Source: Deltaproteobacteria bacterium (lineage in GTDB: Bacteria; Desulfobacterota; Desulfomonilia; UBA1062). From it: DNA of 64,000 bases. Made by a program: the position numbers and the translations under genes. The DNA lies in contig JAKPQL010000076.1 in assembly GCA_029547045.1 (NCBI GenBank), positions 1,442 to 65,441 on the forward strand, given 5' to 3'. This document shows positions 1 through 36,174 of the stretch, one piece after another (positions within the stretch are counted from its first letter, which is position 1; every line of letters begins with the position of its first letter). The notes under the pieces were generated by a model. It did no database searches, was not told the DNA's origin, and saw only the letters and a list, made by a program, of their open reading frames with translations.

Positions 1-3121
<3,121 letters not shown>

Positions 3122-3230
3122 GCTTTTCCTTCAGAACAGTCTTCCGTTTCTGTAGCCCTTCGAGACCCGCCGTGCGCACCTCACCGGGCAGCGCACGGAA
3201 GGCCTCGTATCCCTCTCCGGGGAAAGCTGT

Positions 3231-4190
3231 TCAGTTCAGCTCTTTGATCTTCATCCCTTTGGCGGTCAGGGCCTTCCTGTTGGCGAGCAGGTCCCTGGCG
3301 GCGATCCTGTCCAGCACGTAGATCATATCGCCTCCTCGCGCTGCGTATGTCTGGCTGTAGGAGATCGGGATGTCCGGCGTCGGGTCTCCGAGCAGCGAGA
3401 GGGCCACCGGCTCGACCTTGCGCTCGCCGTTGGCAAGGAGGATGACGGTCTTTGCCTTGTAGACGAGTTCCGCGCCCATGGACACGGCATAGTTGGGGGA
3501 CTCCTTCTTCGTGGCGAAGTGGCCGTCCGCCACCGCGTTGGCCACGGTGTTGTCATCGAGCTTCACGAGCATGACGCTGCTCCCCTTGAAGGGGATGCCG
3601 GACTCGTGGAAGGCCACGTGTCCTCTGCCTCCCACGCCTATGATCTGGAGGTCGATGCCGCCCGCCTTTCTGATCTTTTTCGCATAGCCGTCCAGGATCT
3701 CCCTCTTCACCCATGCGAGGTAGGCGGACTTCGCGCTGTCGCTGATGGCGATGGACTTTCCTTTGTCCGTTCCCAGCGCAACCCAGTCCTTCGGGTTCGC
3801 CTTCAGCTCGGCAATGAGCCTTTTCTGCTCGACGAGCGAGCCGAAGGGCACGTTTGTCTCCATGAACTTGTCCCTGAGGAGGCTGAAAAACTCCTGGATC
3901 ATGAAAAAGGCATAACTCTCGGGGTGCATGACCCGCTGCTGGACATTCTCTCCGGGCAGGCCCACGTACTCGTCCAGGTTGAAGCTCATGCAGGCCTTCG
4001 CGTCGAACTCACCCTTGTTGGCGGACTTTGCCAGGTGCTTGTAGAGCCCGGTGGGCGAATTGCCCGTCGCAAGACCGAGGACGGCCCGCCCCTTCTGCTT
4101 CAGCGTCTGCTGGATCTTCTTCTTGGCGATGTCCGCAGCCACCTCGCTCATTGCTGCGAAGTCCTTTGTGACGATGATCTGTATGCCCAT
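3231..4190 (-). CDS. glucosamine-6-phosphate deaminase / 6-phosphogluconolactonase superfamily protein (long NagB-like form)
   Basis: 319 aa. Carries the motifs GLATGNSPTGLY, NLDEYVGL and GVGGRGHVAFHESG typical of the NagB/Pgl fold. An extra internal segment makes it longer than classical NagB. RBS GGGGAGG precedes ATG 4190. Confidence 0.8.
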   Translation of the reverse strand: MGIQIIVTKDFAAMSEVAADIAKKKIQQTLKQKGRAVLGLATGNSPTGLYKHLAKSANKGEFDAKACMSFNLDEYVGLPGENVQQRVMHPESYAFFMIQEFFSLLRDKFMETNVPFGSLVEQKRLIAELKANPKDWVALGTDKGKSIAISDSAKSAYLAWVKREILDGYAKKIRKAGGIDLQIIGVGGRGHVAFHESGIPFKGSSVMLVKLDDNTVANAVADGHFATKKESPNYAVSMGAELVYKAKTVILLANGERKVEPVALSLLGDPTPDIPISYSQTYAARGGDMIYVLDRIAARDLLANRKALTAKGMKIKELN

Positions 4191-4248
4191 GTCCGAAACC
4201 TCCCCTGTAGATGGAATGTGCTGCCGGATGGTGATGCCGCACCCGTGC

Positions 4249-5598
4249 TCAGCCGATTGTCTTCTTTACGAGTTCCGCCAGCTGAGTGCAATACTTCTCC
4301 GTCACGGCGTCCGTCGGGCCTTCCACCATGACTCGGCACATGTTCTGGGTCCCGGAGTAGCGGATCAGCACCCTTCCCTCCTCGCCAAGCTCCCTTTCCA
4401 CCTGGGCGATGGCCTCCTTCAGCTCGGGCACCGTGCCGATGTCCGGTTTGCTCTTCACGTTCACGTTGATGAGCTTCTGCGGGAAGACGTCCATGAGCCT
4501 GGCAAGCTCGGACAGCGGCTTGCCTGTCTTCACCATGGCCGAAACCAGCTGCATGGCCGTGAGGATGCCGTCCCCCGTGGTGTGGTGGTTGAGGAAGATC
4601 ATGTGCCCTGACTCTTCCCCGCCGATGACGCCGCCCATGCTGAGCATGTCCTCGAGCACGTAGCGGTCACCGACCTTGGATGCGTGGTGCTTGAATCCGT
4701 ATTTCCTGCACGCCACCCGCAGCCCGAGGTTGCTCATCACCGTGCTCACGAGGAGGTCGTTCTTCAGCTTTCCCTCCTCCTTGAGGATCTTTGAGCAGAT
4801 GAGGAGGATCTGGTCGCCGGTGATCTCGTTGCCCTTCTCGTCCACCGCGATGAGGCGGTCGCCGTCGCCGTCAAATGCGAGACCGATGGAGGCCCCGTTT
4901 TCCAGCACCTTCTTCTTCAGGTCGCCCGTGTGCTGCGACCCGCACTTCTCATTGATGTTCAGTCCGTTGGGCTTGTTGTGGATGACCTCCACATCCGCGC
5001 CGAGCTCTGTGAACGCCTCGGGCGCAACGCGGTAGGTCGCCCCGTTCGCCGTGTCCAGGACCATCTTCATCCCTTCCATGGAGAGTTCGCGGGGGAAGGT
5101 GTTCTTCAGGAAGACCACGTACCGTCCGTTCACGTCCTCCATGCGGAATGCCTGCCCCATGTCCTTCGAGGCGGGCAGGTAGTCTGCCAGCTTGCCCCCC
5201 AGCATGAGGTCCTCGATGGTGTTCTCCTGTTCGTCGGAGAGTTTGAACCCGTTTCCGCCGAAGATCTTGATCCCGTTGTCCTCGTAGGGGTTGTGGGAGG
5301 CCGAGATGACGATGCCCGCGTCGGCCCGCATGCTGTTGGCGATGAAGGCGATGCCGGGCGTGGGGAGTACGCCCACCAGGTAGGGGTTGCCGCCCATGGA
5401 GGTGATGCCCGCCTCCAGGGAGCTCTCGAGCATATAGCCAGAAATGCGCGTGTCCTTGCCGATGATGATGCGCGTGCGGTGGTTCTCCTTCCGGAGAAGG
5501 TACGTCACTGCCTGGCCGACCTTGAAGGCGATGTCCGCGGTCATGGGGTAGCGGTTCGCCTCGCCGCGTATCCCGTCAGTTCCGAAAAGCTTTCCCAT
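4249..5598 (-). CDS. glmM: phosphoglucosamine mutase
   Basis: 449 aa. Starts MGKLFGTDGIRG, with phosphoserine loop SASHNPYEDNGIK and metal loop FDGDGDR. RBS GAGGAGG. Confidence 0.93.
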   Translation of the reverse strand: MGKLFGTDGIRGEANRYPMTADIAFKVGQAVTYLLRKENHRTRIIIGKDTRISGYMLESSLEAGITSMGGNPYLVGVLPTPGIAFIANSMRADAGIVISASHNPYEDNGIKIFGGNGFKLSDEQENTIEDLMLGGKLADYLPASKDMGQAFRMEDVNGRYVVFLKNTFPRELSMEGMKMVLDTANGATYRVAPEAFTELGADVEVIHNKPNGLNINEKCGSQHTGDLKKKVLENGASIGLAFDGDGDRLIAVDEKGNEITGDQILLICSKILKEEGKLKNDLLVSTVMSNLGLRVACRKYGFKHHASKVGDRYVLEDMLSMGGVIGGEESGHMIFLNHHTTGDGILTAMQLVSAMVKTGKPLSELARLMDVFPQKLINVNVKSKPDIGTVPELKEAIAQVERELGEEGRVLIRYSGTQNMCRVMVEGPTDAVTEKYCTQLAELVKKTIG

Positions 5599-5638
5599 TG
5601 CATCCTCCTCGTAATAGCCGGGTACAACCCGGAATTTT

Positions 5639-6889
5639 CTACTTCCTGAACAGCTCCAGGCCGGGCATGGCTGCCGATACCGCCCTGCAGCAGCTATCCA
5701 CTACACCCTGGAGCCATTTCGTGCCCGTTGCAGAGACGTCCAAGCCCAACCCCTGTATGGTTTCTACGTAGGTGCCCGCTCCGCCCTGCCTCGCCTTTTC
5801 CAGTTCCCTGAGGAATGCATCTCTCCATGCGTTGCTCTCGGAGTCCAGGTAGTCATTCCCCTCGAATACCTCCTGTACTTTGCCCATGGCGCTTCCGAGC
5901 TCCCTCCTCTGGGCGGCTGCCTTCCCGGATACCGGAGGCTGTTCCGCAGAGGCCTGCCTGGCCATGGCCTCGAGCCTCTTGAGCCGCTCTGCCCTGCCCA
6001 GCGAGAGCTTGTCCAAGAGCCCCGCGTGGATGAGCTCCCCGAACTCGGTGCCTGCGAGGAACGGCCTGCGCACGTGGATGTACCACTCCTTCAGGGCAGC
6101 CAGGTTGGCGAGGTAGATGATGTTGTTCTCCACCACGCGGGCCAGGTTCGGGTAGAGTGCCCGCCGGTAGTCCTTCACGCTCCCGGAGGGAACCTTGCCC
6201 GGGATCAGCATGTTGTCGGAGGTGCAGTCCTCCCTCAGTACCGTTCCTGCCGCCACCACATTGCCGAAGCCCATGCGCACGGGACCCACGATGCCCCCCT
6301 GCCCCCCCAGGAAGATGGCCGGCTGGTTCAGCATGACCCCCCGGGGGACATCGCCGATGAGGGAGGCGGTGGTCTTGTCGCCGTCAGGGGTGAAGTTGAA
6401 GTGGATATAGGAGCTCCCCACCTCGCTGTGGTCCTTGCGGCTGGTGCCCCCTGCCATGAGGCAGTCGCAGAAGTTGATGAGGCTGCCCAGCGTCACGAAG
6501 GGGAAGAGGATGGTCTGCTTGAGGCCCACGCAGTGGGCGCCGCCCGCCTCCTCCTCCAGGATGGACCCTTCCCGTACATGGGCGCCGAACCCCATGTTCG
6601 CCTTGTCGAGGAACACAGACTTGCTGAAGTAGCCGCCCTTGAGCTCCACGTTACGACCGATCTGGCAGTTCTCGATGGTGACGGTCCCCTCACGGCCGAG
6701 CTGAGTGCCCGACGATATGAGCGTGTCCTTGCCGTAAATCCTGCAGCCGGGAAAGATCTTGACCTTGTGGCTGGAAATCCGGTCGACGTTCACCTCGTCT
6801 CCGATGTCCAGGGTCAGGGGATTGGGGATGTCCACCCCCTTTTCGATCAGGTGCATGATCTTCTCATGACAGCGTGGCTTCAGTTCCAT
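5639..6889 (-). CDS. left-handed beta-helix (hexapeptide) acyltransferase-like protein related to the GlmU acetyltransferase half, with no nucleotidyltransferase domain
   Basis: 416 aa. A hexapeptide-repeat region (GAHVREGSILEE..., NFTPDGDKTTASLIGD..., GNVVAAGTVLRED) aligns by eye with the GlmU C-terminal domain. It is followed by a helical tail of about 150 aa. Strong RBS GGGGAGGA. Confidence 0.6.
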   Translation of the reverse strand: MELKPRCHEKIMHLIEKGVDIPNPLTLDIGDEVNVDRISSHKVKIFPGCRIYGKDTLISSGTQLGREGTVTIENCQIGRNVELKGGYFSKSVFLDKANMGFGAHVREGSILEEEAGGAHCVGLKQTILFPFVTLGSLINFCDCLMAGGTSRKDHSEVGSSYIHFNFTPDGDKTTASLIGDVPRGVMLNQPAIFLGGQGGIVGPVRMGFGNVVAAGTVLREDCTSDNMLIPGKVPSGSVKDYRRALYPNLARVVENNIIYLANLAALKEWYIHVRRPFLAGTEFGELIHAGLLDKLSLGRAERLKRLEAMARQASAEQPPVSGKAAAQRRELGSAMGKVQEVFEGNDYLDSESNAWRDAFLRELEKARQGGAGTYVETIQGLGLDVSATGTKWLQGVVDSCCRAVSAAMPGLELFRK

Positions 6890-6936
6890 GCGTTCCTCCC
6901 CTCAAGGGTTGTTCTTCATCCGCTACTCTTCTGTTC

Positions 6937-9900
6937 TCAATGATCAGCCTTCCCGATCTGCTCGAAAATCCTGTTCTTGATGACCTCCACGTCCTCGCCC
7001 AGCAGGAACTTCACCGTCAGGCCGTCGAGGTACTCGTCTTTCCAGGGGATGTTGTACTCGTTGATGAGGTTCGTGATGTCGTTGATCTTCACGCCCATGA
7101 TCTCCTTCTTCTGTGCCGTGGTGAGCGTCTCGTCGAAGTCCACCTGGAGCAGGAGCAGGTGGGTGATGTCCCGCTTTGTGCCCTGGATGGGGATGATGAT
7201 GATGGATGCATCGTCAAAGCGGCCCGTTCCCGCATACACCTTGCGTGTGCGGACAATGGTGTTCTTGGTGCCCTTCAGCGGTGCCTTCCGGTCATACCTG
7301 GACTGCATGCCGGAAGCGACGCCCTGGCGCTTCACGATGGAGAGGGTCGTCTGTGGAGTTGGCATGCCCACCTCGTCCAGGCCCTCCACCGCGTACAGGG
7401 TGTACCCCTTGACCCTCCCGACCGCGGTCTGCAGGTTCTTGAGCGTCAGCATGTCCTTGGCTCGCACGCTCTCCGGCGAGTACCCGAGTTCCGAGAACAC
7501 GGCGAAGATGGGCCCCTTGGGCGCCTCGACCTTCCTGCTGGTGCCCACCGTTACGGTCTTGGCCTGGTGGCGGATTGCGTCCACCGGCCGCGAGAGCTCT
7601 TCGATGGCGCGCTTCATGGTGAGGTCCAGCATGTCTATGGGCGAAGACGATATTCTCCTGCCCTCGAACTCCATCCAGAAATCCTCCACAGGGAGCTTGC
7701 CCTTGGCATACTTGAGCAGGAGCCTGATGTCCGAGGACACGTCGTTGCTCAGGGAGGTAAGGGACCCGCTGTCCAGGCACTTCTTGTACTCAGCCTCGAA
7801 GGCGTCAACCACAAGGTGGAGCCCCTTGTCCGCTATGCTCTCGTAGACGGTATATTCCCGCTTCCGGTGTTCCCGCGCGATCTCTGCGAGGGTGGTACGG
7901 AACCCCTTCAGCGTTGCGGCCAGCGCGTCCAGGCTGCAGGCCGCGTAATAGCCCCAGATGTGCCCGGCCAGGGTGTTGAAGATGACTGAGAGCGGGAACG
8001 CGGCGCGGGGAACACGTATGACCGCGTCCGCAATGGTGTCGAACCGGTGCTCGCCCTCGTCGGTGATGACCACTACACTGGCCGCATGGGCCTTGAAGAT
8101 GGCCACGTCCTTGACGATGTCCTCCACGACGATCTCCGGGCTCCCTGCGGCGCACACGAGGATGAGCGGTTCCGAGGACAGGTCGATGTGCTTCTTGTCC
8201 TCGATGATGTCCGACGAGATGGTCTTGTAACAGAGCTCGGAGAGCTTGATGCGGATCTCGTCGGACGCCACCTTGTTGATGCCGCTTCCCACCACGGCCC
8301 AGTACTGCTTCCTCCGGACCAGTTCCCACGCGGTCTTCCTGATGGCATCCCTGCCCTGGATCACCTCCCTCATGAGGCCGGGGGCATCCTCAAGGGTCAT
8401 CAGGTCCCGGGCGATGGCCTCATCAGACATGGTCTTCATGGTCTGCGCGAAGAAGAGCGCGAGTACGTACCCAGCCACGATTTGCGCGTAGAACGCCTTG
8501 GTGGAGGCCACGGACATTTCGATGTCCCGCCCGTCGCTCGTGTAGAACACGCCGTCGACCTTGGTGGTGATGTCCGACTGCCTGCGGTTCACGATGGCGA
8601 TGAGCCGCGCGCCCCTCTGCCTGGCCATGCTCACGGCGCGGTTCGTGTCCGTGGTGGTCCCGGACTGGGTGATGGCGATGACCAGGGTGTCCGACATGTC
8701 CTCCTCGAGCAGGAACCCGCTCAGGTCCGTGGCCTTCCGGGCCTGGACGTTGACGGTCGCGGGCCTGAGGTAGGCGGAGATGGCCTCGGCCACGGCGGAG
8801 GCGGCCACTGCGGCCGTGCCCTGCCCCACCACGTAGATGTTCCTGATCCTGCCCCCACCCATCGCCTCCCTGGTTGCGGGGTCCACGATGCCGTCGTCCA
8901 GGTTGAACACCGCCTTGCCGCCTGCTCCGATACGGTACTTGCCCCGCAGGGTCTTGCGGATGGAGTCGGGGGCGTCGAGGATTTCCTTGATGAGGAAGTG
9001 GGGATGGTCACCCCTGTCGATGTCGCGGGTGGTCATCTGGGCCAGGCCGATGTCCTTCCCGGTGAGGCACAGGGGATGCCCGTCGTAGGACATGGCCTCG
9101 ATGCCGGCAAGCCCGGGGCCCCGGTCATGGTGCAGCACGAACAGCTGGCCCTGGGTTGCCGGGTCGTCCGGCACGCGAGGGGTCTCGCCGTCCATCTTGA
9201 TGAACCTCTGGGTCTCTTCCACCAGACCGTATATCTCGGAGGCGAACATGTAGCCGTTCTCGAGGAGGCCCACGTAGATGGTCTGTCCGCTGCCCTTCTG
9301 GGCGAGGTATATCGTGCCCGGCTCCAGGTTGCTCTCCATGGCGATGGCATGGGAGCCCTCGAAGTCGCACACAGCCCTGCGGAAGGCCTCCTTCAGGTCA
9401 TGGCCCTTGAGGAGGTATCGTTCGATCTGCAGGGGGATGACCTTGGTGTCGGTGGTCACGTCCGGGCTCACGTGCGTGCCTGCCGCCTCGATGTCGTTCC
9501 TGATCCGGTGGTGGTTGTCGATGTCCCCGTTGAGCACCGCGCTGATGGTCCACGCGCCCTGCCCGTAAAAGGGGTAGTCCCTGAGGGCCACGGGGATGCC
9601 TTGGTCCTCCCCGGGCCTTTGGTCCACGGTGTGGCTGTCCACCGGGTGGCAGTTGACCTCGTTGATGGCGCCCACAGAGGCCCAGCGTGTATGGGTGAGG
9701 TACGCCTCCGTGGCGCAGTCCAGACCCAGGGTGACCCTGAGGATGCTGTCCCGGCAGATGTACGCGCGCAGCTTGGCCGTGTTCTCGCCGAGCTCGCCGG
9801 TGATCTGGGCGGTCTTGTACGTAAAGGAGACACTGGATCCGCCCAGGCGTATGGATCCGTTCATCAGGTCACCGGGCCCGGACCGGGAGAGAAACTCTTC

Positions 9901-10776
9901 CAGGTGCCCTTCCTGGGCGAGCATCTGTCTCAGGCCTGCAGCGGCATCCTTTCCCCTGAGCTCCACCATGACCTGGAGTCCGGCAGAGTCGCGCCCCCGC
10001 ACCTCGAGCCGGTCCAGGGCGTTGAGACAGGCATTGATCCTCAGGTACCGGCCGAACAGTGACGGATTCTCGAAGATCCCGGGCCCGGCCAGGTCCTGGA
10101 TCTTGTCGAGATTCCCGATGATGTCAGTCCTCAGTGACCAGGACACGTCCTTCAGCGTGATGAGGCGGGCCGTCATGGCCTCCAGTTCCCCTGGCGGGAT
10201 GCCCCCTGCCTCCCTCTCCAGGGCCTCGTCCTCACTGTCCACAAAGGTCTTGAGCCGCTGCGACACTTCCCTGAGACGGCCGAGGCCGCCGCCGGAGAGC
10301 AGGGCATGCTGAAGGTCCGAGTCCTGCTTGATCAGCGTGATCCCACGGTGAAGCTCCTCCAGGGATCCCGGGTCCAGGTATGCCTCTTTCCCGGTCCTGC
10401 CGGAGATCAGGGATGCCATGCCATGGCCGTACACGGCACCTGCGGCCCTCTCCAGGTCCTCAAGGATGGAACCGTGCGCTGCGGATGAGGCCCGTCTGAT
10501 GCACACGAAGCCGGCAAGCCCGCAGCAGAGCAGGTGGTCCTGGATGGGGAGGAAAACGACGGCCGGCCCGCGAAGGGTCCTCGGGTCTTTCCCGACATAC
10601 ACCCTCCATCCCTGTTTCCTGCGCTCTCCGGCTGTAAACACCTTGAACATGGGGGCCCTCATCCGCCACCGGTCCCTGATGGCAGTGTGGAGACCGTCCA
10701 CCCACCGCCTCAGATGTCCCTTCGACTGCCCTCTATAGCATCCGGAAGACATGACAGGCAATCCCCTATGCCCCAT
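6937..10776 (-). CDS. giant glutamine--fructose-6-phosphate aminotransferase (GlmS)-like protein: Ntn amidotransferase + 2 SIS domains + extra domains
   Basis: 1279-aa ORF. Class II amidotransferase motifs CGLAGFV, RLEVRGRDSAGL, HTRWASVG and NGDIDNH. Two SIS domains (VVGQGTAAVAA...ITQSGTTTDT; VVGSGINKVASDE). A GlmS C-terminus-like AKTVTVG is followed by about 200 more residues. The start is uncertain: ATG 10776 overlaps the carA stop, and ATG 10752 and 10650 have RBS-like AGGGGA/GAGGG. Confidence 0.8.
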   Translation of the reverse strand: MGHRGLPVMSSGCYRGQSKGHLRRWVDGLHTAIRDRWRMRAPMFKVFTAGERRKQGWRVYVGKDPRTLRGPAVVFLPIQDHLLCCGLAGFVCIRRASSAAHGSILEDLERAAGAVYGHGMASLISGRTGKEAYLDPGSLEELHRGITLIKQDSDLQHALLSGGGLGRLREVSQRLKTFVDSEDEALEREAGGIPPGELEAMTARLITLKDVSWSLRTDIIGNLDKIQDLAGPGIFENPSLFGRYLRINACLNALDRLEVRGRDSAGLQVMVELRGKDAAAGLRQMLAQEGHLEEFLSRSGPGDLMNGSIRLGGSSVSFTYKTAQITGELGENTAKLRAYICRDSILRVTLGLDCATEAYLTHTRWASVGAINEVNCHPVDSHTVDQRPGEDQGIPVALRDYPFYGQGAWTISAVLNGDIDNHHRIRNDIEAAGTHVSPDVTTDTKVIPLQIERYLLKGHDLKEAFRRAVCDFEGSHAIAMESNLEPGTIYLAQKGSGQTIYVGLLENGYMFASEIYGLVEETQRFIKMDGETPRVPDDPATQGQLFVLHHDRGPGLAGIEAMSYDGHPLCLTGKDIGLAQMTTRDIDRGDHPHFLIKEILDAPDSIRKTLRGKYRIGAGGKAVFNLDDGIVDPATREAMGGGRIRNIYVVGQGTAAVAASAVAEAISAYLRPATVNVQARKATDLSGFLLEEDMSDTLVIAITQSGTTTDTNRAVSMARQRGARLIAIVNRRQSDITTKVDGVFYTSDGRDIEMSVASTKAFYAQIVAGYVLALFFAQTMKTMSDEAIARDLMTLEDAPGLMREVIQGRDAIRKTAWELVRRKQYWAVVGSGINKVASDEIRIKLSELCYKTISSDIIEDKKHIDLSSEPLILVCAAGSPEIVVEDIVKDVAIFKAHAASVVVITDEGEHRFDTIADAVIRVPRAAFPLSVIFNTLAGHIWGYYAACSLDALAATLKGFRTTLAEIAREHRKREYTVYESIADKGLHLVVDAFEAEYKKCLDSGSLTSLSNDVSSDIRLLLKYAKGKLPVEDFWMEFEGRRISSSPIDMLDLTMKRAIEELSRPVDAIRHQAKTVTVGTSRKVEAPKGPIFAVFSELGYSPESVRAKDMLTLKNLQTAVGRVKGYTLYAVEGLDEVGMPTPQTTLSIVKRQGVASGMQSRYDRKAPLKGTKNTIVRTRKVYAGTGRFDDASIIIIPIQGTKRDITHLLLLQVDFDETLTTAQKKEIMGVKINDITNLINEYNIPWKDEYLDGLTVKFLLGEDVEVIKNRIFEQIGKADH

Positions 10777-11914
10777 TCGGGGTATGTCTCTCCATCAGCT
10801 CCATGAACTCCCTGAAGAGATATCCGGCATCCCTGGGGCCCGGGGCGGCCTCGGGGTGGTACTGAACACTGAAGGCCTTCAGGTCCGGCGCCCTGAATCC
10901 CTCCAGGGTGCCGTCGTTCAGGTTGATGTGGGTCACCTGTGTGTCGCGGGGAAGCGTCTCCCTGAGCACCACGAACCCGTGGTTCTGAGAGGAGATCTCC
11001 ACGCGGCCCGTGATCAGGTTCTTTACGGGCTGGTTTATCCCATGGTGGCCGAACTTGAGCTTGGCGGTCCTGGCGCCCAGTGCCTGGCCCAGGATCTGGT
11101 GTCCGAGGCAGATCCCGAAGACGGGCAGCCTGCCCAGGAGTTCCCTCACCGTGTCCACCAGGCAGGTGAGCGGCGCCGGGTCCCCGGGACCGTTGGAGAG
11201 CAGCAGGCCGTCCGGCTCAAAGGCCAGCACGTCGTGGGGTCCTGTCGCTGCGGGGACCACCACGACCTCGCACCCCTGGGCCTCGAGCATGCGGAGGATG
11301 TTGAGCTTGACACCGCAGTCCATGACCACCACCCGGGGTCTGTCCTTCTTCTCAGGCATTGCGTCAAGGGGCATCCTGGCGTTGCCCTTCCAGATGCAGG
11401 GCGCATCGCAGGTGACGCCCTGCACGATGTCCCTGCCGACGAGCCCCGGATAGGCCCGGACAGCATCCAGGAGGCCCCTGATGTCCCCAGTGTCCGTGGA
11501 GACGACACCCCGCATGGCGCCCATGGTGCGGATGCGCCGGGTGAGCGCCCTGGTGTCGACGCCCTCGATGCCGATGCGTCCGTTCTCCTGAAGGTACGCT
11601 GCCAGGCTCTTCCTGGACCGGTGGTTGCTTGGGAACGGCTGGTATTCACGTACCACGAGGCACTCCAGGTGGATGCCAGCCGACTCAACGTCCTCGTCGT
11701 TGATGCCGTAGTTCCCGATGAGGGGATACGTCATGACCAGGATCTGTTCCCTGTAGGAAGGGTCCGTGAGGCACTCCTGGTACCCGGTCATGCCCGTGTT
11801 GAACACGACCTCGCCGAAGCGGGAGCCCTCTCCGGCAAAGACCCGCCCCCGGTACACGGTGCCGTCTTCGAGCACCAGAACGGCGGGTCCTGTGGAGTTG
11901 CCAGTCAATCCCAT
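10766..11914 (-). CDS. carA: carbamoyl-phosphate synthase small (glutaminase) subunit
   Basis: 382 aa. Contains VFNTGMTGYQE and the catalytic region VFGICLGHQIL (class I amidotransferase). Confidence 0.93.
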   Translation of the reverse strand: MGLTGNSTGPAVLVLEDGTVYRGRVFAGEGSRFGEVVFNTGMTGYQECLTDPSYREQILVMTYPLIGNYGINDEDVESAGIHLECLVVREYQPFPSNHRSRKSLAAYLQENGRIGIEGVDTRALTRRIRTMGAMRGVVSTDTGDIRGLLDAVRAYPGLVGRDIVQGVTCDAPCIWKGNARMPLDAMPEKKDRPRVVVMDCGVKLNILRMLEAQGCEVVVVPAATGPHDVLAFEPDGLLLSNGPGDPAPLTCLVDTVRELLGRLPVFGICLGHQILGQALGARTAKLKFGHHGINQPVKNLITGRVEISSQNHGFVVLRETLPRDTQVTHINLNDGTLEGFRAPDLKAFSVQYHPEAAPGPRDAGYLFREFMELMERHTPNGA

Positions 11915-11942: not shown

Positions 11943-11977
11943 CAGGCAGCCCGGTCCATCGAGGGCCGGGCTGCCTG
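11943..11977 (-). other. perfect 12-bp GC-rich stem-loop between glnA and carA (no U-tract)
   Basis: CAGGCAGCCCGG-N11-CCGGGCTGCCTG read directly. No T-run follows on either strand, so it is not a classical intrinsic terminator. Confidence 0.5.
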
Positions 11978-11989
11978 GTCTGCCATGAT

Positions 11990-13321
11990 CTATAGTACGG
12001 CAAGGTAGGTGTCAATCTCGTACTTGCTGACATGGATGCGGAAGTTGTCCCACTCCTTCTTCTTGTTCTCGATGAACTTCTCGAAGATGTGGTCGCCCAG
12101 GGCCTCGCGGACCAGAGAACTCCTGGAGACCTCCTGGATGGCCTCGAAGAGGTTGCCGGGCAGCGAGGTGATGCCGGCCTCCTCCCGCGCGTGCTCGTCC
12201 ATCTCGAAGATGTCCTGCTCCACGGGTTCAGCCAGGGGGTACTTCCTGGTGATGCCCTCGAGGCCGGCAGCGATCTGGACCGCAAAGGCCAGGTACGGGT
12301 TGCATGCAGGGTCCGGGGCCCTGAACTCGATGCGGGTGGCGTTGGCCTTGCCCGGCTTGTACATGGGCACGCGCACCATGGCAGAGCGGTTCCTGCGGGC
12401 CCAGGATATGTAGACCGGCGCCTCGTAGCCGGGCACGAGCCGCTTGTAGGAGTTCACCCACTGGTTCGTCACGGCCACGATCTCGCGGGCGTGCTTGAGG
12501 ATGCCGGCGATGTAGCTCTTGCCGACCTTGGAGAGGTGGTACTTGTCCTTGGCGTCGAAGAACGCGTTCTCGTCCCCCTTGAAGAGCGACTGGTGCACGT
12601 GCATGCCGCTGCCGTTCCCCCCGAAGATGGGCTTGGGCATGAAGGTGGCGTAAACGCCCTTCTGGCGGGCGATCTCCTTCACCGCGGTGCGGTAGGTCAT
12701 GACGATGTCCGCCATCCTGAGTGCCTCGGCGTACCTCAGATCGATCTCGTGCTGGGAAGGCGCCACCTCGTGGTGGCTGTACTCCACCCGGATGCCCATG
12801 TTCTGCAGGGCGAAGATGGTCTCGCGCCGGAGGTCCGTGCCAAGGTCTATGGGCAACCCGTCGAAGTAGCCGCCCCGGTCTATGATCTCCGGGCACGTGC
12901 TGTTGGCGAAGTAGAAGTACTCGAGCTCGGGTCCGAGGTATGCGGTGTAGCCCAGCTTGGCGGCCTTCCTGAGCACGCGCTTCAGGGCGTAGCGGGGGTC
13001 ACCGTCGTACGGCGTGCCGTCCGGGTTTACAATGTCGCAGATCATGCGTGCCACCGGCTTCTCCGCGGGTCTCCAGGGGAGCATCTGGAAGGTGGTGAGG
13101 TCGGGTTTGGCGATCATGTCGCTCTCGTGGATGCGGGCGAACCCCTCGATGGAGGAACCGTCGAACCCCATTCCCTCCTCGATGCCTTCGTCGAGCTCGG
13201 AAGGGGTGATCTGGAAGCTCTTCAGCCTCCCGATGACATCCGTGAACCAGAACTGGATGAAGCTTATGTTGTACTCCTTCACCGCCTTCAGTACATCCGC
13301 TTTCGTCTTGCAGTTGAACAT
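11990..13321 (-). CDS. glnA: glutamine synthetase type I (short, GSI-alpha-like)
   Basis: 443 aa. N-terminus ...ISFIQFWFTDVIGRLKSF, plus MPKPIFGGNGSGMHVHQS and NRSAMVRVP motifs. Confidence 0.93.
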   Translation of the reverse strand: MFNCKTKADVLKAVKEYNISFIQFWFTDVIGRLKSFQITPSELDEGIEEGMGFDGSSIEGFARIHESDMIAKPDLTTFQMLPWRPAEKPVARMICDIVNPDGTPYDGDPRYALKRVLRKAAKLGYTAYLGPELEYFYFANSTCPEIIDRGGYFDGLPIDLGTDLRRETIFALQNMGIRVEYSHHEVAPSQHEIDLRYAEALRMADIVMTYRTAVKEIARQKGVYATFMPKPIFGGNGSGMHVHQSLFKGDENAFFDAKDKYHLSKVGKSYIAGILKHAREIVAVTNQWVNSYKRLVPGYEAPVYISWARRNRSAMVRVPMYKPGKANATRIEFRAPDPACNPYLAFAVQIAAGLEGITRKYPLAEPVEQDIFEMDEHAREEAGITSLPGNLFEAIQEVSRSSLVREALGDHIFEKFIENKKKEWDNFRIHVSKYEIDTYLAVL

Positions 13322-13378: not shown

Positions 13379-15718
13379 CTATCCTATTGGAACGTTCTCC
13401 CTGAGCTCCCAGATCCCGCACGGGCACGCCCCGGCGCAGAAGCCGCACCCGATGCACCGATCCGCATCCACCACATATTCGAACCCGCCGCCCTCAAGCG
13501 TTTTCCTGGATATGGCACTGCCCGGGCAGAGCGTCTCGCACAGGCCGCAGTCCCTGCAGCCCCCGCACGAGGCGCACTGCACTGAGCAGGCATGGATGTC
13601 AGGCAGTTCCTTCACCGACGGGTCATAGTATTCGAGGTGGATGCGTGCCGTGTCGATGACCGAGAGCTGGTCATGGGTCTCCTGCTGACCTCTCAGTGCG
13701 GCATCTATTGCGGAAGCCACCTTCCTGCCCGCTCCTATGGCATCCGTGATGAGACCAGGACGGACGCTGTCACCGATGGCGAAGACCCGGGGGTCGGAGG
13801 TCCGATAGTCATCGCCCACCCTGATGAACCCGCCCTGCGTGTCGATGGAATCGGGGAGGAAGGAGAGGTCCGGCCTGTCCCCGATGGACGCCACTACCAG
13901 GTTCGCCGGGATCTCTGTCCCGTCGGACAGGACCACGCCCTTCTTGGTGATGGCCTCGGTCTTCACAGGCCAGACGAACCTGGCGCCCGCGGCTTCGGCG
14001 GCTGCCCTCTCCTTGCCGAAGGATGCGGGTTTCTGGATGTCGATGAGCGTGACTTCCTTGGCACCGAGGCGATATGCCTCTGTAGCCGCATCGCAGCCAA
14101 CATTGCCCGCTCCGATGATCACGACGCGCTCACCCACGCCGATCCTGTTTCGTTTGGCGGACCGGAGGAAGTCGAGTGCCGGCATTGCCCTGTCATACCC
14201 CTTGACCCTGAGTTCCCGGGGATTCTGCGCCCCCACTGCAATGACGGTATACTCATACCGATCGCGAATGTCCATGAAAAGCTCTTCCGTGACGCCCCCC
14301 TCGTCGAGCTTCACCCAGGCAACCCTGTCACGCAGGCGCTTCAGCTCGTGCTCGAACACGTCCTTCGGGATCCGGCTGAAGGGGATGACGCTGCGGATCT
14401 TTCCGCCCAGATCCTCGGCCCTGTCATGGATGACCGGCTCGTGGCCCTTGAGCCACAACTGCCACGCTACGGAGAGTCCTGCGGGCCCTCCGCCGATGAT
14501 GGCCACCTTCTTCCCCGTGGGCTGGAGCGGTTCCGGTTCAACGGCGTCGAGGCTCGCCCTGCCGAGAAGGGCCGTATCGACGGGAACCAGGTTCGCCTTT
14601 CCTCTGGTGCACCCTTCCATGCACAGGTTCGGGCACAGATGGCCGCACACCGTGGCAGGGAAAGGGGTGTATTCCAGCGACAGGTTCACCGCCTTGTCGA
14701 GCTCACCCTTGCGGATGAGCTCCCACCTCTTCTGCACCGGGATCCCGGTGGGACAGCTCGCCTGGCAGGGCGGGAGATACTTGTGGTTCTCCCACGAGGG
14801 CACGAACCTCCTCAGATCGCCCGTGGTGATGACCGGGATCTGTCCCCGATCGAGGTTGGTGAGGTCTCCGATGAGTCCGCCTGCGCCCAGTTCCCTGTCC
14901 CAGACCTCGGTATGGAACTGGCGCATGGTGGATCTTCGTATGGACAGCTTCTCCGATGGCGCGCGGGCCGTGATGAGCTGCCATGTGGACCGGTCATGGG
15001 TGAGCTCTTCAAAGATGTATTCCTTGCCCGCCACCTGGAGGAAGTCCTTGAGGCCTTTTCTCAGCCACTCCCACTCTTCGTCCGTGATGCGCACGATCTT
15101 CGCGTCCGCCTCACTGTAGGACTTCTGGTGACCGTGGAAGAAGATCTTCCCCCCCACCATGCCCACGCACGGCCGGGTACCCAGGATGCTGTTCCGCCGG
15201 TAGTGAGAGCCGTGACCGCACACCACGGCGACGCCGCCGGCCATGAACTCTGCGAACGAGTCCCCCACCCCACCCAGGACCCAGAGCTCGGGCGGCTCGA
15301 AGCGGGGGTTCTGCTTGGTCATGGTCATGCCCCGGGCACCGATGTCGCCGGCCACGTAGATCCTGCCCTGGGCCATGGCGTTGGCCACCCCGTTGGTGGC
15401 ATCGCCGTGCACGATGATGGTGGCCCCTGCATTGAGCCAGCCCACGTCGTCGGAGGCGGACCCGTGCACCTCGATGGTGGTGCCGGGCGCACCCATGGAA
15501 CCTATGCGCTGCCCTGGGAAGCCCCTGATTTCCACCTTGACGGGCTTCCCGTCAGTGTTCCACAGCCTGCCCCCGATGCCGTGCTGGCCGTGGGCCTGCA
15601 CCTCGATTCGGTGGTACCCCTCGGCCACAGCCCGCTGGATGCGCTCCTCGAGGATGCGGGACTCGATGCGGCGGTCGTCCTCCATGCCGGCTATGAATAT
15701 GCTGTCATGCTGTGCCAT
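13379..15718 (-). CDS. glutamate synthase GXGXG (GltB C-terminal) domain fused to a GltD-like NAD(P)H/FAD oxidoreductase and a 2x[4Fe-4S] ferredoxin tail
   Basis: 779 aa. N-terminal GXGXG beta-helix (HGQHGIGGRLW..., GDATNGVANAMAQGRIYVAGDIGARG). Central GltD-type region (KKVAIIGGGPAGLS, VVIIGAGNVGCD, FAIGDS). C-terminal CxxCxxCxxxCP x2 (CGGCRDCGLCETLCP, CIGCGFCAGACP). Confidence 0.85.
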   Translation of the reverse strand: MAQHDSIFIAGMEDDRRIESRILEERIQRAVAEGYHRIEVQAHGQHGIGGRLWNTDGKPVKVEIRGFPGQRIGSMGAPGTTIEVHGSASDDVGWLNAGATIIVHGDATNGVANAMAQGRIYVAGDIGARGMTMTKQNPRFEPPELWVLGGVGDSFAEFMAGGVAVVCGHGSHYRRNSILGTRPCVGMVGGKIFFHGHQKSYSEADAKIVRITDEEWEWLRKGLKDFLQVAGKEYIFEELTHDRSTWQLITARAPSEKLSIRRSTMRQFHTEVWDRELGAGGLIGDLTNLDRGQIPVITTGDLRRFVPSWENHKYLPPCQASCPTGIPVQKRWELIRKGELDKAVNLSLEYTPFPATVCGHLCPNLCMEGCTRGKANLVPVDTALLGRASLDAVEPEPLQPTGKKVAIIGGGPAGLSVAWQLWLKGHEPVIHDRAEDLGGKIRSVIPFSRIPKDVFEHELKRLRDRVAWVKLDEGGVTEELFMDIRDRYEYTVIAVGAQNPRELRVKGYDRAMPALDFLRSAKRNRIGVGERVVIIGAGNVGCDAATEAYRLGAKEVTLIDIQKPASFGKERAAAEAAGARFVWPVKTEAITKKGVVLSDGTEIPANLVVASIGDRPDLSFLPDSIDTQGGFIRVGDDYRTSDPRVFAIGDSVRPGLITDAIGAGRKVASAIDAALRGQQETHDQLSVIDTARIHLEYYDPSVKELPDIHACSVQCASCGGCRDCGLCETLCPGSAISRKTLEGGGFEYVVDADRCIGCGFCAGACPCGIWELRENVPIG

Positions 15719-18465: not shown

Positions 18466-18507
18466 GCATGTTCCTCCCTGGGCTTCTTGTCATGCTCCTT
18501 CAGTATA

Positions 18508-18522
18508 GCCATAACTATGCCA
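18508..18522 (-). promoter_or_regulatory. candidate sigma-54 (-24/-12) promoter of the GOGAT-glnA operon
   Basis: The minus strand reads TGGCATAGTTATGGC. GG-N10-GC spacing is correct, but the -12 element is TGGC rather than TTGC. It lies about 40 nt upstream of the GTG start at 18465. Confidence 0.45.
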
Positions 18523-18764: not shown

Positions 18765-20285
18765 CTAGGCCTTCTTGGCCTTGAAGCGCCTCGTGTCGAT
18801 GCCGTACTTCTCCACCTTGTACTGGATTATGCGCTTGGTGGTGCCCAGGAGTCGCGCTGCCTGGCTCTGGTTCCCCTTGGCGTCCTTCATGGCGTCGATG
18901 ATGAGGGAGCGCTCGTAGGTGTTCACCAGGCTTTCGAGCTTGCCGTGCTGCTTCTTCTCCTGGCCGGAGGTCTTCATCTGGAGAGACGGCGGGAGGTGGA
19001 TCCCGTCGATGGTGTCGCCGCCTGCGATGAGTACTGCACGTTCGATGCAGTTCTCCAGTTCCCGGACATTGCCGGGCCAGTGGTAGGCGAGCAGCATGTC
19101 GATGGCGGGCGTGGAGATGCGCTTGACGGTCTTCTTGAACTGCCTGGCATACTTGTCCACGAAATAGTCTGCCAGCAGCATGATGTCCCCTCCCCGCTCC
19201 CGGAGCGGCGGCATGTAGATGGGGAACACGTTGAGCCGGTAGTAGAGGTCCGACCTGAAGGTGCCCGATGCCACGTCCTGATCGAGGTCGCGGTTGGTGG
19301 CCGTGATGATCCTCACGTTCACCTTGATCATGGCGTTGGAGCCGAGCGGCTGGATCTGGCGCTCCTGGATCACGCGCAGGAGCTTCGCCTGGGCCATGGC
19401 GGAGAGCTCCCCCACCTCGTCGAGGAAGATGCTGCCGCCGTTCGCCTCCTCGAAGCGGCCACGCCTCTTCTGGCTGGCCCCGGTGAAGGCGCCCCGCTCG
19501 TGTCCGAACAGCTCGCTCTCGATGAGGGTGTCCGGCATGGCGGCGCAGTTCACCTCGATGAAGGGCCCTCCTGCGCGCGGGCTGTTCTTGTGGATGGCCC
19601 TGGCCACGAGCTCCTTGCCCGTTCCGGTCTCGCCGTGGATGAGCACCGTGGTGTTGGAGTCGGCCACCTGGGAGACGAGCCCGAACACCTCCTTCATGCT
19701 CTTGGAATTTCCGATGATCTCCTCTGAGGGACGCTGGCTCTTGCCGATGATGTTCTTGAGGCGCCGGTTCTCCTCCTCGATGGCGCGGGTGTGGACGGCC
19801 TTGGCGATGAGGTCCGCCACCGCGCCGAGGAGCTGCAGCTCGTACTCCTGGCTGTTCACCTCATGTGCCACCTTGTCGGCGGAGAGCACGCCCACCACCC
19901 TGTCGTCGTACATGATGGGCACGCAGAGAAAGGCAAGCTCGCACTGGTTCAGGTTCTTCCTCGCCCCGGTGCGGTCGAGAAACTGCTTGTCCTTGCCAAG
20001 GTTGGTGATGACCATGGGCTTTCCCGTCTGCGCCACCTGGCCGGTAATGCCCTCCCCGGGCATGTAGGTGATCTCCATTCCATCGATGTCGATCCCGTGC
20101 GCCACGTCGAGGATGGCAACGCCGGAGTCCCTGTCCAGGATGGAGATCATGCCGCGGTTCATGCCCGTGCCGGTGCTGAGCTCGTCGAGGACCCGCTCCA
20201 GCTGCACACGGAGATCCAGCGGTGTGGCCAGTATCATTGCCAGGTCGTGGAGCACCTTGAGATCGTCATAACTGAACGGCACCAT
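18765..20285 (-). CDS. sigma-54-dependent transcriptional activator, GAF-AAA+-HTH (NifA/NtrC-like, no receiver domain)
   Basis: 506 aa. N-terminal GAF-like domain, Walker A GETGTGKE, GAFTGA loop ESELFGHERGAFTGA, and a Fis-type HTH QSQAARLLGTTKRIIQYKVEKYGI. Confidence 0.9.
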   Translation of the reverse strand: MVPFSYDDLKVLHDLAMILATPLDLRVQLERVLDELSTGTGMNRGMISILDRDSGVAILDVAHGIDIDGMEITYMPGEGITGQVAQTGKPMVITNLGKDKQFLDRTGARKNLNQCELAFLCVPIMYDDRVVGVLSADKVAHEVNSQEYELQLLGAVADLIAKAVHTRAIEEENRRLKNIIGKSQRPSEEIIGNSKSMKEVFGLVSQVADSNTTVLIHGETGTGKELVARAIHKNSPRAGGPFIEVNCAAMPDTLIESELFGHERGAFTGASQKRRGRFEEANGGSIFLDEVGELSAMAQAKLLRVIQERQIQPLGSNAMIKVNVRIITATNRDLDQDVASGTFRSDLYYRLNVFPIYMPPLRERGGDIMLLADYFVDKYARQFKKTVKRISTPAIDMLLAYHWPGNVRELENCIERAVLIAGGDTIDGIHLPPSLQMKTSGQEKKQHGKLESLVNTYERSLIIDAMKDAKGNQSQAARLLGTTKRIIQYKVEKYGIDTRRFKAKKA

Positions 20286-20466: not shown

Positions 20467-20482
20467 TGGCATTCACATTGCT
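20467..20482 (+). promoter_or_regulatory. sigma-54 (-24/-12) promoter of amtB-glnK(-glnD)
   Basis: TGGCATTCACATTGCT matches TGGCAC-N5-TTGCW in spacing and in both the GG and GC elements. It lies 35 nt upstream of ATG 20517. Confidence 0.7.
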
Positions 20483-26947: not shown

Positions 26948-27107
26948 GCGTTCCTCCGTATGCTGGTATGGTTGTGCCCCATGGGTGCCGGATCCCACCC
27001 GTGGCTGACTCACCCGTAACCCTCTTAGGTCAGTCAGCATGTCTGTTCAATACAAAATCATGGAAACGGGTGCGGGGCATCCTTTCGTCTCCTTGTGCCC
27101 CCCTACA

Positions 27108-27122
27108 GCAAGGACGGTGCCA
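27108..27122 (-). promoter_or_regulatory. sigma-54 (-24/-12) promoter of glnN
   Basis: The minus strand reads TGGCACCGTCCTTGC, a perfect TGGCAC-N5-TTGC. It lies about 160 nt upstream of ATG 26947. Confidence 0.7.
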
Positions 27123-27358
27123 GGGACCGGCAAGGACAGTTATGCGATATCATTAAATAATTGCCGCACCGCACCCTTTGACCTGTAACAATAGCGGGTC
27201 ATTCCTGTCAGGTTGGGTCATTTTTGTTTCAAAAGCCTGCCACATAGAGACCCTGCGGGGAAGCACAGGGGAGACGGTGTGCATACCGTGCATTCATCCA
27301 TGCCCATTTCTACAGATTCATCTTGAAGTACGGGAGTCATTTCTTTTAAGTAGTGTGC

Positions 27359-32776: not shown

Positions 32777-32892
32777 TGTGTTACCTCCTCGCGTATTGTT
32801 GCCCGTACAGGGCATTTCCGTGAATGTCCGATTATCAGCAAACCTTATGCCACGGAGGAGCCGTTGATTGCAAGGACGGGCACGCACCCGCT

Positions 32893-34290: not shown

Positions 34291-34451
34291 GCCCAGGTAC
34301 TGTGCAAGCCAGGGGCCAGTCCTGTTTCAGAACTGCGACCTCGTGGAGCCGCAGGGTTTCACGATGCATGGCCCATGGTACGTCCGGGTCGAGGGACATT
34401 TTCGTCCATTCATGCGCTTTTGGCTCAATATTGTTTCAACGAACACCTGCA

Positions 34452-36119: not shown

Positions 36120-36159
36120 GGTCTCCCCCTTCAAGCTTCATTGTTTCAGGGAGACGACT

Positions 36160-36174
36160 GCAATTGCCCTGCCA
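36160..36174 (-). promoter_or_regulatory. sigma-54 (-24/-12) promoter of asnB-purF-(aaRS-like) operon
   Basis: The minus strand reads TGGCAGGGCAATTGC (TGGCA-N6-TTGC, correct spacing). It lies about 40 nt upstream of ATG 36119. Confidence 0.7.

Follow-up and report, generated by a model that had tools for sequence, protein, structure and literature searches.

In the 64,000-nucleotide stretch of a Deltaproteobacteria bacterium contig analysed here (JAKPQL010000076.1; hereafter the window), four genes lie between carA and carB. They encode a giant GlmS/GFAT-like amidotransferase (GlmSL), a beta-helix protein related to the GlmU acetyltransferase (LbH), a phosphoglucosamine mutase (GlmM) and a divergent NagB-family protein (NagBL). 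From our comparison of gene neighbourhoods, we conclude that NagB-family proteins and biosynthetic GlmS-type enzymes form a pair that recurs across bacteria and archaea and is no quirk of the window, and that GlmSL usually shares its gene string with further glutamine amidotransferases, glutamine synthetase and glutamate synthase (GOGAT). GlmSL between carA and carB is the older layer of the arrangement, and an LbH-GlmM-NagBL cassette is a second, added layer. Each protein comes from a known superfamily, and GlmM is ordinary. Tentatively, we read the locus as a two-entry node for glucosamine 6-phosphate (GlcN6P), in which GlmSL would provide the glutamine-dependent entry and NagBL would be a reversible, ammonia-linked shunt or buffer for biosynthesis; this reading, drawn from sequence comparison, we place somewhat below an even chance.

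The synthesis of GlcN6P is the committed step towards peptidoglycan, lipopolysaccharide and the glycans of archaea and eukaryotes, and its control is a classic problem. GlmSL stands for a large family, present in at least 592 species-level genomes, in which GlmS is doubled in size by unassigned domains and seems to be synthesised in precursor form. A NagB-like protein and a beta-helix protein related to GlmU accompany glmM and a GlmS-type gene across hundreds of anaerobes as well as Asgard archaea, and the genes of hexosamine synthesis are built into strings of glutamine consumers beside glutamine synthetase and GOGAT. Current annotations of these proteins are inconsistent, naming them deaminase, lactonase, GlmU or merely SIS-domain protein. 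If NagBL is biosynthetic, it would provide an energy-saving ammonia route in organisms living near the thermodynamic limit, and the genome-based reconstruction of hexosamine pathways would change. We found no description in the literature of a giant GlmS, of the LbH family, of NagB-family proteins in hexosamine biosynthetic clusters or of hexosamine genes within amidotransferase strings.

Gene order and neighbourhoods of GlmSL

The original prediction of four same-strand genes with short gaps between carA and carB (3231-10776) was borne out: from carA to carB the gaps are 115, 47, 40, 58 and 109 nt, and carA and carB are not adjacent. The genes form part of a single minus-strand string (1-20285) that runs from a NifA-like activator through GOGAT, glnA, carA, GlmSL, LbH, GlmM and NagBL to carB, with GGAGG-type ribosome-binding sites at all of its genes (Table 1). 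Among contigs of the same organism, L109 (loci used for comparison carry L numbers) has a carB of 1066 aa followed by the gene for CTP synthase (pyrG). The six-gene order carA-GlmSL-LbH-GlmM-NagBL-carB is repeated in seven species-level relatives, whose GlmSL proteins are 56-93% identical to that of the window (L002, L003 (partial), L008, L030, L033, L193 and L195), and is therefore no chance juxtaposition. The upstream order of glnA and GOGAT is kept in L001-L008, L016, L018 and L030.

The four genes had been described as a single module wedged into carAB, a framing that we replace with that of two layers, because relatives often have carA-GlmSL-carB alone and because the cassette also occurs alone. 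In the wider clade of the window, carA-GlmSL-carB commonly occurs with none of the other three genes between them (L001, L004-L007, L016 and L018), and the LbH-GlmM-NagBL cassette stands by itself in L107, in L108 and in 26 of 80 loci. Interrupted carAB operons are known from Pseudomonas, which has carA-orf-carB, and from Neisseria, which has a spacer between carA and carB. The window resembles these in that carA and carB are split yet remain on the same strand, but differs in that 7.6 kb and four unrelated metabolic genes intervene.

GlmSL is carried mostly by Desulfobacterota (Syntrophales, Desulfomonilia and Desulfobacterales), together with Acidobacteriota, Aminicenantes and Solirubrobacteraceae. 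Sequences that encode it include OY761459.1, CAXXWJ010000001.1 and CP070673.1, the last of which encodes NagBL as well (L271). Its neighbours on the same strand within 6 kb were counted at the 62 loci with enough flanking DNA. The most frequent are pyrG (30 loci) and LbH (27), followed by GlmM (15), GOGAT (14), NagBL (12), carB (11), glnA (10), carA (9), hisH/hisF (4), nadE (2) and purF (2); LbH directly adjoins GlmSL in 20 of these loci. The order is sigma-54 activator, glnA, GOGAT, pyrG and GlmSL in L027, sigma-54 activator, pyrG, GlmSL, hisH, hisF and nadE in L028, and GlmSL, GlmM and LbH in L029 (Aminicenantes). The same type of regulator, a sigma-54 activator, is found upstream of the GlmSL strings in L027, L028 and L030. 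Thus carAB is one of several amidotransferase neighbours of GlmSL, the others being pyrG, hisH, nadE and purF, and since carA follows glnA/GOGAT and pyrG follows carB, the organising theme is glutamine use and not the carAB unit.

Other genes were seen upstream of GlmSL in a Desulfobacterales branch with 41-43% identity. In L101 (7096-9635) two genes resemble, by eye and from their N-termini, a DegT-like aminotransferase and an iron-type dehydrogenase/dehydroquinate-synthase-like protein, and in L079 (8726-9805) the second such gene, likewise recognised by eye, occurs alone. These genes hint at a different sugar-modifying context.

The LbH-GlmM-NagBL cassette

NagBL belongs to a family present in at least 566 species-level genomes, and features within 7 kb were counted at the 60 loci with room upstream. 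GlmM is present in 58 of these and lies directly upstream of NagBL in 41, LbH is present in 50, and the dominant arrangement is LbH, GlmM, NagBL. A GlmS-type gene occurs in 29 (18 giant, 11 canonical) and is lacking from the other 31, whereas the GlmU N-domain occurs in 9. A search of the 60 neighbourhoods for NagA, uptake genes not included, found it in none, and NagBL does not belong to an operon for amino-sugar catabolism. The proposed pairing of a GlmS-like with a NagB-like protein is therefore real, recurrent and more general than the window; of the proposal that linked this pair to nitrogen, the parts that did not stand are the wedge and the equation of LbH with the C-terminal half of GlmU.

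In two Desulfobacterota genomes (L209 and L233) a canonical glmU-glmS pair lies divergently beside the cassette. Giant GlmS (L192-L197) and canonical GlmS (L209, L233) thus take the same slot beside the cassette, which indirectly supports the view that GlmSL does the job of GlmS. Neither a canonical glmS nor a canonical glmU was detected in the window or across 106-111 related loci (by tblastn in 111 loci for the GlmU N-domain), and GlmU is absent from most bacterial loci within the fetched flanks of 7-10 kb. The cassette resembles the glmU-glmS operons of many bacteria (here L112-L120) in that GlcN6P-forming and GlcN6P-using enzymes are clustered, as they also are in the glmM-glmS operon of Bacillus. 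It differs from both in that NagB-family and LbH proteins are constant members and GlmS is often giant.

Several long contigs of Asgard archaea (Promethearchaeota, Hermodarchaeota and Hodarchaeota) encode NagBL proteins that are 62-68% identical to that of the window, and their LbH, where present, is ~50% identical to the LbH of the window. These contigs (L213, L224, L231, L239, L242, L244, L250, L254 and L260) carry an archaeal-type GlmM, a GlmS of canonical size, or both. The fullest cluster, L213, of which the other Asgard loci show variations, comprises a GlmU-type enzyme of 428 aa, LbH, a canonical-size GlmS of 616 aa, NagBL and an archaeal GlmM-type mutase. The occurrence of these proteins in Asgard hexosamine clusters suggests that genes were transferred between the archaea and Desulfobacterota.

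Beside the stand-alone cassette of L108 lies a divergent gene (2895-5096, minus strand) for a CofD-family protein of 733 aa. The B. subtilis GlmS regulator GlmR/YvcK belongs to the same family.

The GlmS-like amidotransferase

The most likely start of GlmSL is M43 (10650), since its homologues begin there and a GAGGG-N5-ATG ribosome-binding site is present. In the numbering of the full open reading frame (ORF), a leader of ~42 aa (43-84, counted from this likely start), which is conserved in the family, precedes the nucleophile Cys85 (10522-10524). The class-II glutaminase domain reaches to ~565 and contains, after its first strand, a helical insert of ~155 aa (~104-257). It is followed by two SIS subdomains (~590-925), a second helical insert of ~140 aa (~930-1075) with the AKTVTV motif of Lys1073, and a C-terminal alpha/beta domain of ~190 aa (~1090-1279). 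Pfam matches are SIS and GATase_6/7; at E<=10, Pfam gave no match to the two inserts and the C-terminal domain of GlmSL or to the C-terminal domain of LbH. Scores were compared with curated family cut-offs, which GlmM exceeds and GlmSL, NagBL and LbH do not reach. The GlmS profiles NF001484 (243.9 bits, cut-off 381) and TIGR01135 (225.4 bits, cut-off 418) matched residues 357-948 only.

Despite these scores, the GlmS-like identity held up. When 118 members of the family were aligned with E. coli GlmS, all 18 key catalytic residues checked proved invariant. They are, in E. coli numbering, C1, R26, R73, W74, H86, N98, G99 and D123 of the glutaminase site and T302, Q348, S349, T352, S401, K403, K485, E488, H504 and the Schiff-base lysine K603 of the isomerase site. 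Cys85 is present in 117 of the 118 members, the remaining one having a gap, and four substrate-contact positions carry conservative substitutions (T76S, H77V, S303A and S347T). The residue aligned with K603, which in GlmS lies in the C-terminal tail (LAKSVTVE-COOH), is Lys1073, inside the invariant HQAKTVTVGTSRK motif (HQAKTVTV), which is internal, with ~200 residues after it, and falls in the lowest-confidence stretch of the structural model. This AlphaFold2 model, which covers residues 85-1279, is confident overall, with a pLDDT of 85.3 and a pTM of 0.74. Foldseek placed it closest to the full-length structures of human GFAT-1 and E. coli GlmS (TMt 0.65-0.70) and to structures of the isomerase domain by itself (TMt 0.86-0.88).

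GlmSL shares with known GlmS/GFAT enzymes (EC 2.6.1.16; TIGR01135, NF001484; PDB 1JXA, 2J6H, 6R4E) a class-II (Ntn) glutaminase followed by two SIS subdomains, the catalytic residues of both sites, the relative arrangement of the domains and, by alignment, the lysine motif of the C-terminal tail. It differs from them in being twice as large and only ~20% identical to GFAT-1 and E. coli GlmS in structural alignments, in having the tail motif internal instead of C-terminal, and in its additional leader, inserts and C-terminal domain. We regard it as a predicted GlcN6P synthase, catalytically complete but heavily decorated.

Relatives of GlmSL in Solirubrobacteraceae (L024, 9677-13129; L025, 9764-13228) are ~1150 aa long and 39-40% identical, and begin at M/V-CGI without a leader. 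This supports the cysteine as the true N-terminal nucleophile, in which case the leader must be removed, as in PurF. The PurF of the window itself has a 12-residue leader (MDDHLDDHWREE) ahead of its nucleophilic CGIVG and may serve, by analogy, as an in-window precedent for the processing of class-II amidotransferases. A leader ahead of the nucleophilic cysteine also has a precedent in GltB.

The NagB-like protein

NagBL matched the NagB profiles NF001684 (137.7 bits, cut-off 326) and TIGR00502 (132.6 bits, cut-off 236.9) far better than the 6-phosphogluconolactonase profile TIGR01198 (43.1 bits, cut-off 124.45). The equivalents of the E. coli catalytic residues D72, H143 and E148 and of the phosphate-binding K208 are kept, and the motifs NLDEY, GH(V)AFHE and GERK occur in at least 95% of 120 aligned members. 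Although some databases label members of the family 6-phosphogluconolactonase, the profile scores and the conserved catalytic Asp, His and Glu speak against this identity and support the initial assignment as NagB-like.

The protein shares the fold family of NagB (EC 3.5.99.6; TIGR00502; PDB 1DEA, 2BKV) by profile, together with these residues. It departs from NagB in its sub-cut-off scores, in three conserved insertions of about 7, 7 and 26 aa, in the replacement of R172 of E. coli NagB by His, and in its setting, which is mostly directly downstream of glmM and never near nagA. I199, V206, L208 and V209 align with S151, R158, K160 and T161, which in the hexameric E. coli enzyme belong to the allosteric site for N-acetylglucosamine 6-phosphate. 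NagBL matches B. subtilis-type NagB better than E. coli NagB, and the allosteric-site residues are absent from B. subtilis NagB as well; the B. subtilis type is not known to be allosteric.

The LbH protein and GlmM

GlmM is canonical, with 587.6 bits on TIGR01455 (cut-off 447.55), all four PGM/PMM Pfam domains and the SASHNP active-site motif. LbH consists of an N-terminal part related to the GlmU acetyltransferase beta-helix and a C-terminal helical bundle of ~170 aa. Its residues 11-229 match positions 241-435 of TIGR01173 (E=6e-14; 52 bits, cut-off 367), and a profile of the LbH family matched GlmU in the PDB weakly (E=5.6e-5), covering GlmU residues ~241-455. In this weak alignment R106, K124 and N165 of LbH align with Arg333, Lys351 and Asn386 of GlmU. 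Invariant in the family are H119, C141, D142, C143, H154 and H163, a Cys/His/Asp cluster without a counterpart in GlmU. The AlphaFold2 model of LbH is poor (pLDDT 60, with the most conserved part below 50), and a fold search from this poor model returned generic helical bundles and no specific match.

Among left-handed beta-helix families, LbH is closest to the C-terminal glucosamine 1-phosphate (GlcN1P) acetyltransferase domain of GlmU (TIGR01173; PDB 2V0H, 5VMK); it is tied genomically to glmM, and in Asgard archaea it lies directly after a GlmU-type gene. It differs in lacking a uridylyltransferase domain, in aligning Phe with the catalytic His363, and in its own Cys/His/Asp cluster and C-terminal helical bundle. 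LbH had been described as GlmU-C-like; we reject the idea that it is simply a detached acetyltransferase half of GlmU or a substitute for that half, since L209, L233 and L213 encode a full-length GlmU alongside it. The accompanying statement that the module lacks a uridylyltransferase domain was confirmed, as profile searches found no NTP-transferase domain in the four proteins.

A metagenome contig of 3.6 kb encodes a protein of 750 aa (P0416) in which a uridylyltransferase domain of the GlmU type, a short beta-helix and a complete LbH-family protein are fused. Such a protein may reflect genuine replacement of a domain or a chimeric assembly. As Rosetta-stone proof of a split GlmU it is weak evidence, being a lone contig whose N-terminal relatives are ordinary full-length GlmU.

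Nitrogen setting and transcription signals

The nitrogen-status setting that had been proposed for the module is present in the window. The NifA-like sigma-54 activator scores 505.8 bits on the nifA profile TIGR01817 (cut-off 528.85) and has the Pfam domains Sigma54_activat, GAF and HTH_8. Besides the glutamine synthetase and GOGAT genes of the string, amtB, glnK and glnD are encoded on the opposite strand, with a type-III glutamine synthetase, an AsnA-like gene, purF and asnB further on. The AsnA-like protein, of the ammonia-dependent type, scores below its cut-off and is encoded near purF and the glutamine-dependent asnB; the latter and the AsnA-like gene would, judging by their sequences, make up another pair of glutamine- and ammonia-using enzymes within this nitrogen island. 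Sites resembling sigma-54 promoters lie just upstream of several of these genes (Table 1). Matches to the pattern in the window are not above the number expected by chance, and position is the only evidence for these sites; their placement suggests a sigma-54 nitrogen regulon over about 36 kb. The pattern scan found no such site inside the module from carA to carB.

Within the spacer between carA and GlmSL, a block of ~45 nt that immediately follows the carA stop is the sole well-conserved part in the window, L001, L002, L006, L008, L017 and L018. It contains a promoter-like element whose consensus in these seven species is TTGCCT, 18 nt, TGnTATA(C/G)A, and which is unique in the window. A sigma-70-like promoter is plausible here. 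The element emerged from the comparison of spacers, as a consensus scan detected no sigma-70 promoter in the gaps of the module. GC-rich hairpins follow NagBL and glnA; in some relatives the one between glnA and carA is followed by an A/T-rich tract, and it is possibly a partial terminator or a stabiliser. A consensus scan found no minus-strand terminator-like site in the gaps of the module, and Rfam at gathering thresholds detected a single tRNA in the window and neither a glmS ribozyme nor a glutamine or other riboswitch.

As to whether the four genes are insulated from carAB, the result is divided: a promoter-like element follows carA, but no terminator-like site occurs in any gap. Since this element is conserved, strict co-transcription with carAB is uncertain. 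Likely, to judge from these signals, is read-through from a nitrogen-regulated upstream promoter together with an internal promoter that would serve GlmSL to carB and pyrG.

Discussion

We propose, tentatively, that these genes make up a hexosamine-phosphate branch within a long nitrogen-assimilation string that groups glutamine consumers with glutamine synthetase. In this model GlmSL would lose its leader, expose the Cys nucleophile and convert glutamine and fructose 6-phosphate (Fru6P) to GlcN6P and glutamate, while the cassette would dock beside a GlmS-type enzyme, either giant or canonical. GlmM would convert GlcN6P to GlcN1P, and NagBL would interconvert Fru6P plus ammonium and GlcN6P at the same node. 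With abundant ammonium and a shortage of glutamine or ATP, NagBL could supply GlcN6P without spending either of the latter, and when GlmSL overshoots, it could drain the surplus GlcN6P. LbH, related to the GlmU acetyltransferase, would be an accessory protein, an acyltransferase or a regulator, and uridylylation would be carried out by an enzyme encoded elsewhere. The model builds on gene content and order, conservation, catalytic residues and folds, from which we infer the activities, the direction of NagBL, the cleavage of the leader, the role of LbH and the transcription units.

The evidence for NagBL as a biosynthetic shunt is that it keeps only biosynthetic company, that nagA is never nearby and that its position in the cassette suits a GlcN6P-forming enzyme. 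It is strengthened by the second glutamine/ammonia pair of AsnB and the AsnA-like protein, by the nitrogen-sensing context and by the nature of several source samples, which were anaerobic digesters or sludge. We take such habitats to be ammonium-rich, and the equilibrium constant of the NagB reaction is modest, so that amination is feasible at tens of mM ammonium. Anabolic use of NagB-type enzymes is exemplified by Gln6PI of Giardia, by mammalian GNPDA and by E. coli glmS suppressors.

Several points weigh against this model. GlmSL, NagBL and LbH each score under curated family cut-offs, the conserved leader of ~42 aa could hold the glutaminase of GlmSL inactive, and the presence of GlmSL and NagBL in the same string by itself predicts a futile cycle. 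For LbH, the catalytic His363 of GlmU aligns with Phe140, in the weak alignment mentioned above, and full-length GlmU occurs in the same loci (L209, L233, L213). The sigma-54-like and sigma-70-like sites amount to no more than matches to a consensus. Finally, the NagB of Akkermansia was unable to aminate Fru6P under physiological conditions (PMC5902328).

Two alternatives concern NagBL. GlmSL and NagBL may run simultaneously as a substrate cycle with the sum of glutamine to glutamate and ammonia, which would give sensitive control of GlcN6P or act as a regulated glutaminase, with no net GlcN6P from NagBL. The short gaps and the lack of a terminator-like site in the string that carries both genes agree with this, as do the GlmS-type gene in 29 of 60 NagBL loci, the preference of characterised NagB enzymes for deamination (PMC5902328) and the lack of a glmS ribozyme or known RNA regulator, which makes another homeostatic device plausible. 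We nevertheless consider such a cycle unlikely: each turn would cost an energy-limited anaerobe one ATP for the regeneration of glutamine, 31 of the 60 loci have no GlmS-type gene within 7 kb, and the E. coli-type allosteric residues that could gate the cycle are not kept. Alternatively, NagBL could simply serve catabolism or recycling, deaminating surplus GlcN6P or GlcN6P from the cell wall for use in glycolysis and freeing ammonia when nitrogen is limiting, with a placement that reflects only shared metabolites. NagB enzymes are typically catabolic (PMC5902328), the catalytic residues are kept, and the release of ammonia would be sensible in a string headed by a NifA-like activator and glnA. 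Its consistent position directly after glmM and LbH, the lack of NagA in all 60 neighbourhoods, the identity of 62-68% retained within biosynthetic clusters from Desulfobacterota to Asgard archaea, the sub-cut-off scores and the conserved insertions make this quite improbable.

Two further alternatives bear on the nitrogen link and on GlmSL. The module may have its own promoter and no special link to carAB or nitrogen, its placement being a neutral, lineage-specific accident of gene order among housekeeping genes. The conserved sigma-70-like element right after carA and the conserved hairpin after glnA would fit, and so would the occurrence of the cassette in many unrelated contexts (L107, L108) and of GlmSL with many different neighbours and, in a Desulfobacterales group, with none of them. 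Those neighbours are, however, overwhelmingly glutamine amidotransferases or glutamine synthetase/GOGAT, and even in distant lineages a sigma-54 activator of this kind often precedes them; moreover, the carA-GlmSL-carB order is kept down to about 56% GlmSL identity and there is no terminator between the genes, which leaves a neutral placement distinctly unlikely. The least probable alternative, in our view very doubtful, is that GlmSL is not a GlcN6P synthase, either because it aminates another ketose phosphate or because an uncleaved leader blocks Cys85, leaving a regulator that senses sugar phosphate or glutamine in a signalling complex with LbH. It could account for scores well below the GlmS equivalog cut-offs, the four substitutions (T76S, H77V, S303A and S347T), about 500 extra residues without a known domain, the conserved leader and the frequent adjacency to LbH. 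Against it stand the catalytic residues of both half-reactions, including the Schiff-base Lys, invariant in 118 members, the two-domain arrangement as in GFAT/GlmS, the canonical glmS place that GlmSL takes relative to glmM and the cassette, and the precedent of PurF, including that of the window, for a leader ahead of the nucleophilic Cys.

A bolder extension of the two-entry model, which we also consider unlikely, is that LbH and NagBL form an unrecognised accessory pair of the UDP-N-acetylglucosamine (UDP-GlcNAc) pathway, shared horizontally among anaerobes (Desulfobacterota, Acidobacteriota and Asgard archaea). NagBL would be an ATP-sparing entry to GlcN6P that depends on ammonia, and the zymogen-like, multi-domain giant GlmS would couple hexosamines to nitrogen through cleavage of the leader, its extra domains or LbH. 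If true, this would be a nitrogen-sensing two-entry switch unlike the known controls by the glmS ribozyme, the RNAs GlmY/GlmZ or UDP-GlcNAc feedback.

Features of the window and minor observations

Table 1. Genes and candidate regulatory elements of the window; positions are counted from its first nucleotide.
Feature	Position	Strand	Remarks
carB	1..3121	-	Carbamoyl-phosphate synthase large subunit; first 1040 codons, C-terminus beyond window edge; translation starts MPKRTDL; 77-94% identical to carB of relatives
GC-rich hairpin	3170..3198	-	CCGTGCGC...GCGCACGG; NagBL-carB spacer, no T-run; analogous hairpins in L002 and L033
NagBL	3231..4190	-	319 aa, divergent NagB-family protein
GlmM	4249..5598	-	449 aa, canonical phosphoglucosamine mutase
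LbH protein	5639..6889	-	416 aa
GlmSL	6937..10650	-	ORF to 10776; likely product 1237 aa, full ORF 1279 aa
Promoter-like element	10732..10761	-	5 nt after carA stop; TTGCCT, 18 nt, TGcTATAGA (-35 and extended -10)
carA	10766..11914	-	Carbamoyl-phosphate synthase small (glutaminase) subunit, 382 aa; TIGR01368 472.5 bits (cut-off 307.35); Pfam CPSase_sm_chain and GATase
GC-rich hairpin	11943..11977	-	Just after glnA stop; stem in 11 species, both-sided changes in 2 of 7 pairs
glnA	11990-13321	-	Upstream in the same gene string
Archaeal-type glutamate synthase, three ORFs	13379-15718, 15737-17371, 17335-18465	-	Pfam Glu_synthase, GXGXG and Pyr_redox_2
Sigma-54 -24/-12-like site	18507..18522	-	TGGCATAGTTATGGCT; 42 nt upstream of first GOGAT ORF, 2 mismatches
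NifA-like sigma-54 activator	18765..20285	-	Heads the string; GAF, AAA+ and HTH_8 domains
Sigma-54-like site, amtB	20467-20482	+	Just upstream of the gene
Sigma-54-like site, type-III glutamine synthetase (glnN)	27107-27122	-	Perfect match
AsnA-like gene	31553-32887	-	
Sigma-54-like site, AsnA-like gene	32837-32852	-	Just upstream
purF	32893-34290	-	
Sigma-54-like site, purF	34303-34318	-	Just upstream of the gene
asnB	34452-36134	-	
Sigma-54-like site, asnB	36159-36174	-	Just upstream of the gene

Beside the nitrogen genes, a gene at 27353-29980 on the plus strand encodes a protein of 875 aa whose sole domain is PPDK_N (ATP-grasp-like), and a similar protein adjoins the sigma-54 activator of L028 (3240-5834; Desulfobacterales). 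The nitrogen island is bordered by a plus-strand gene for a hybrid-cluster protein (hydroxylamine reductase; 36751-38382, 837 bits).

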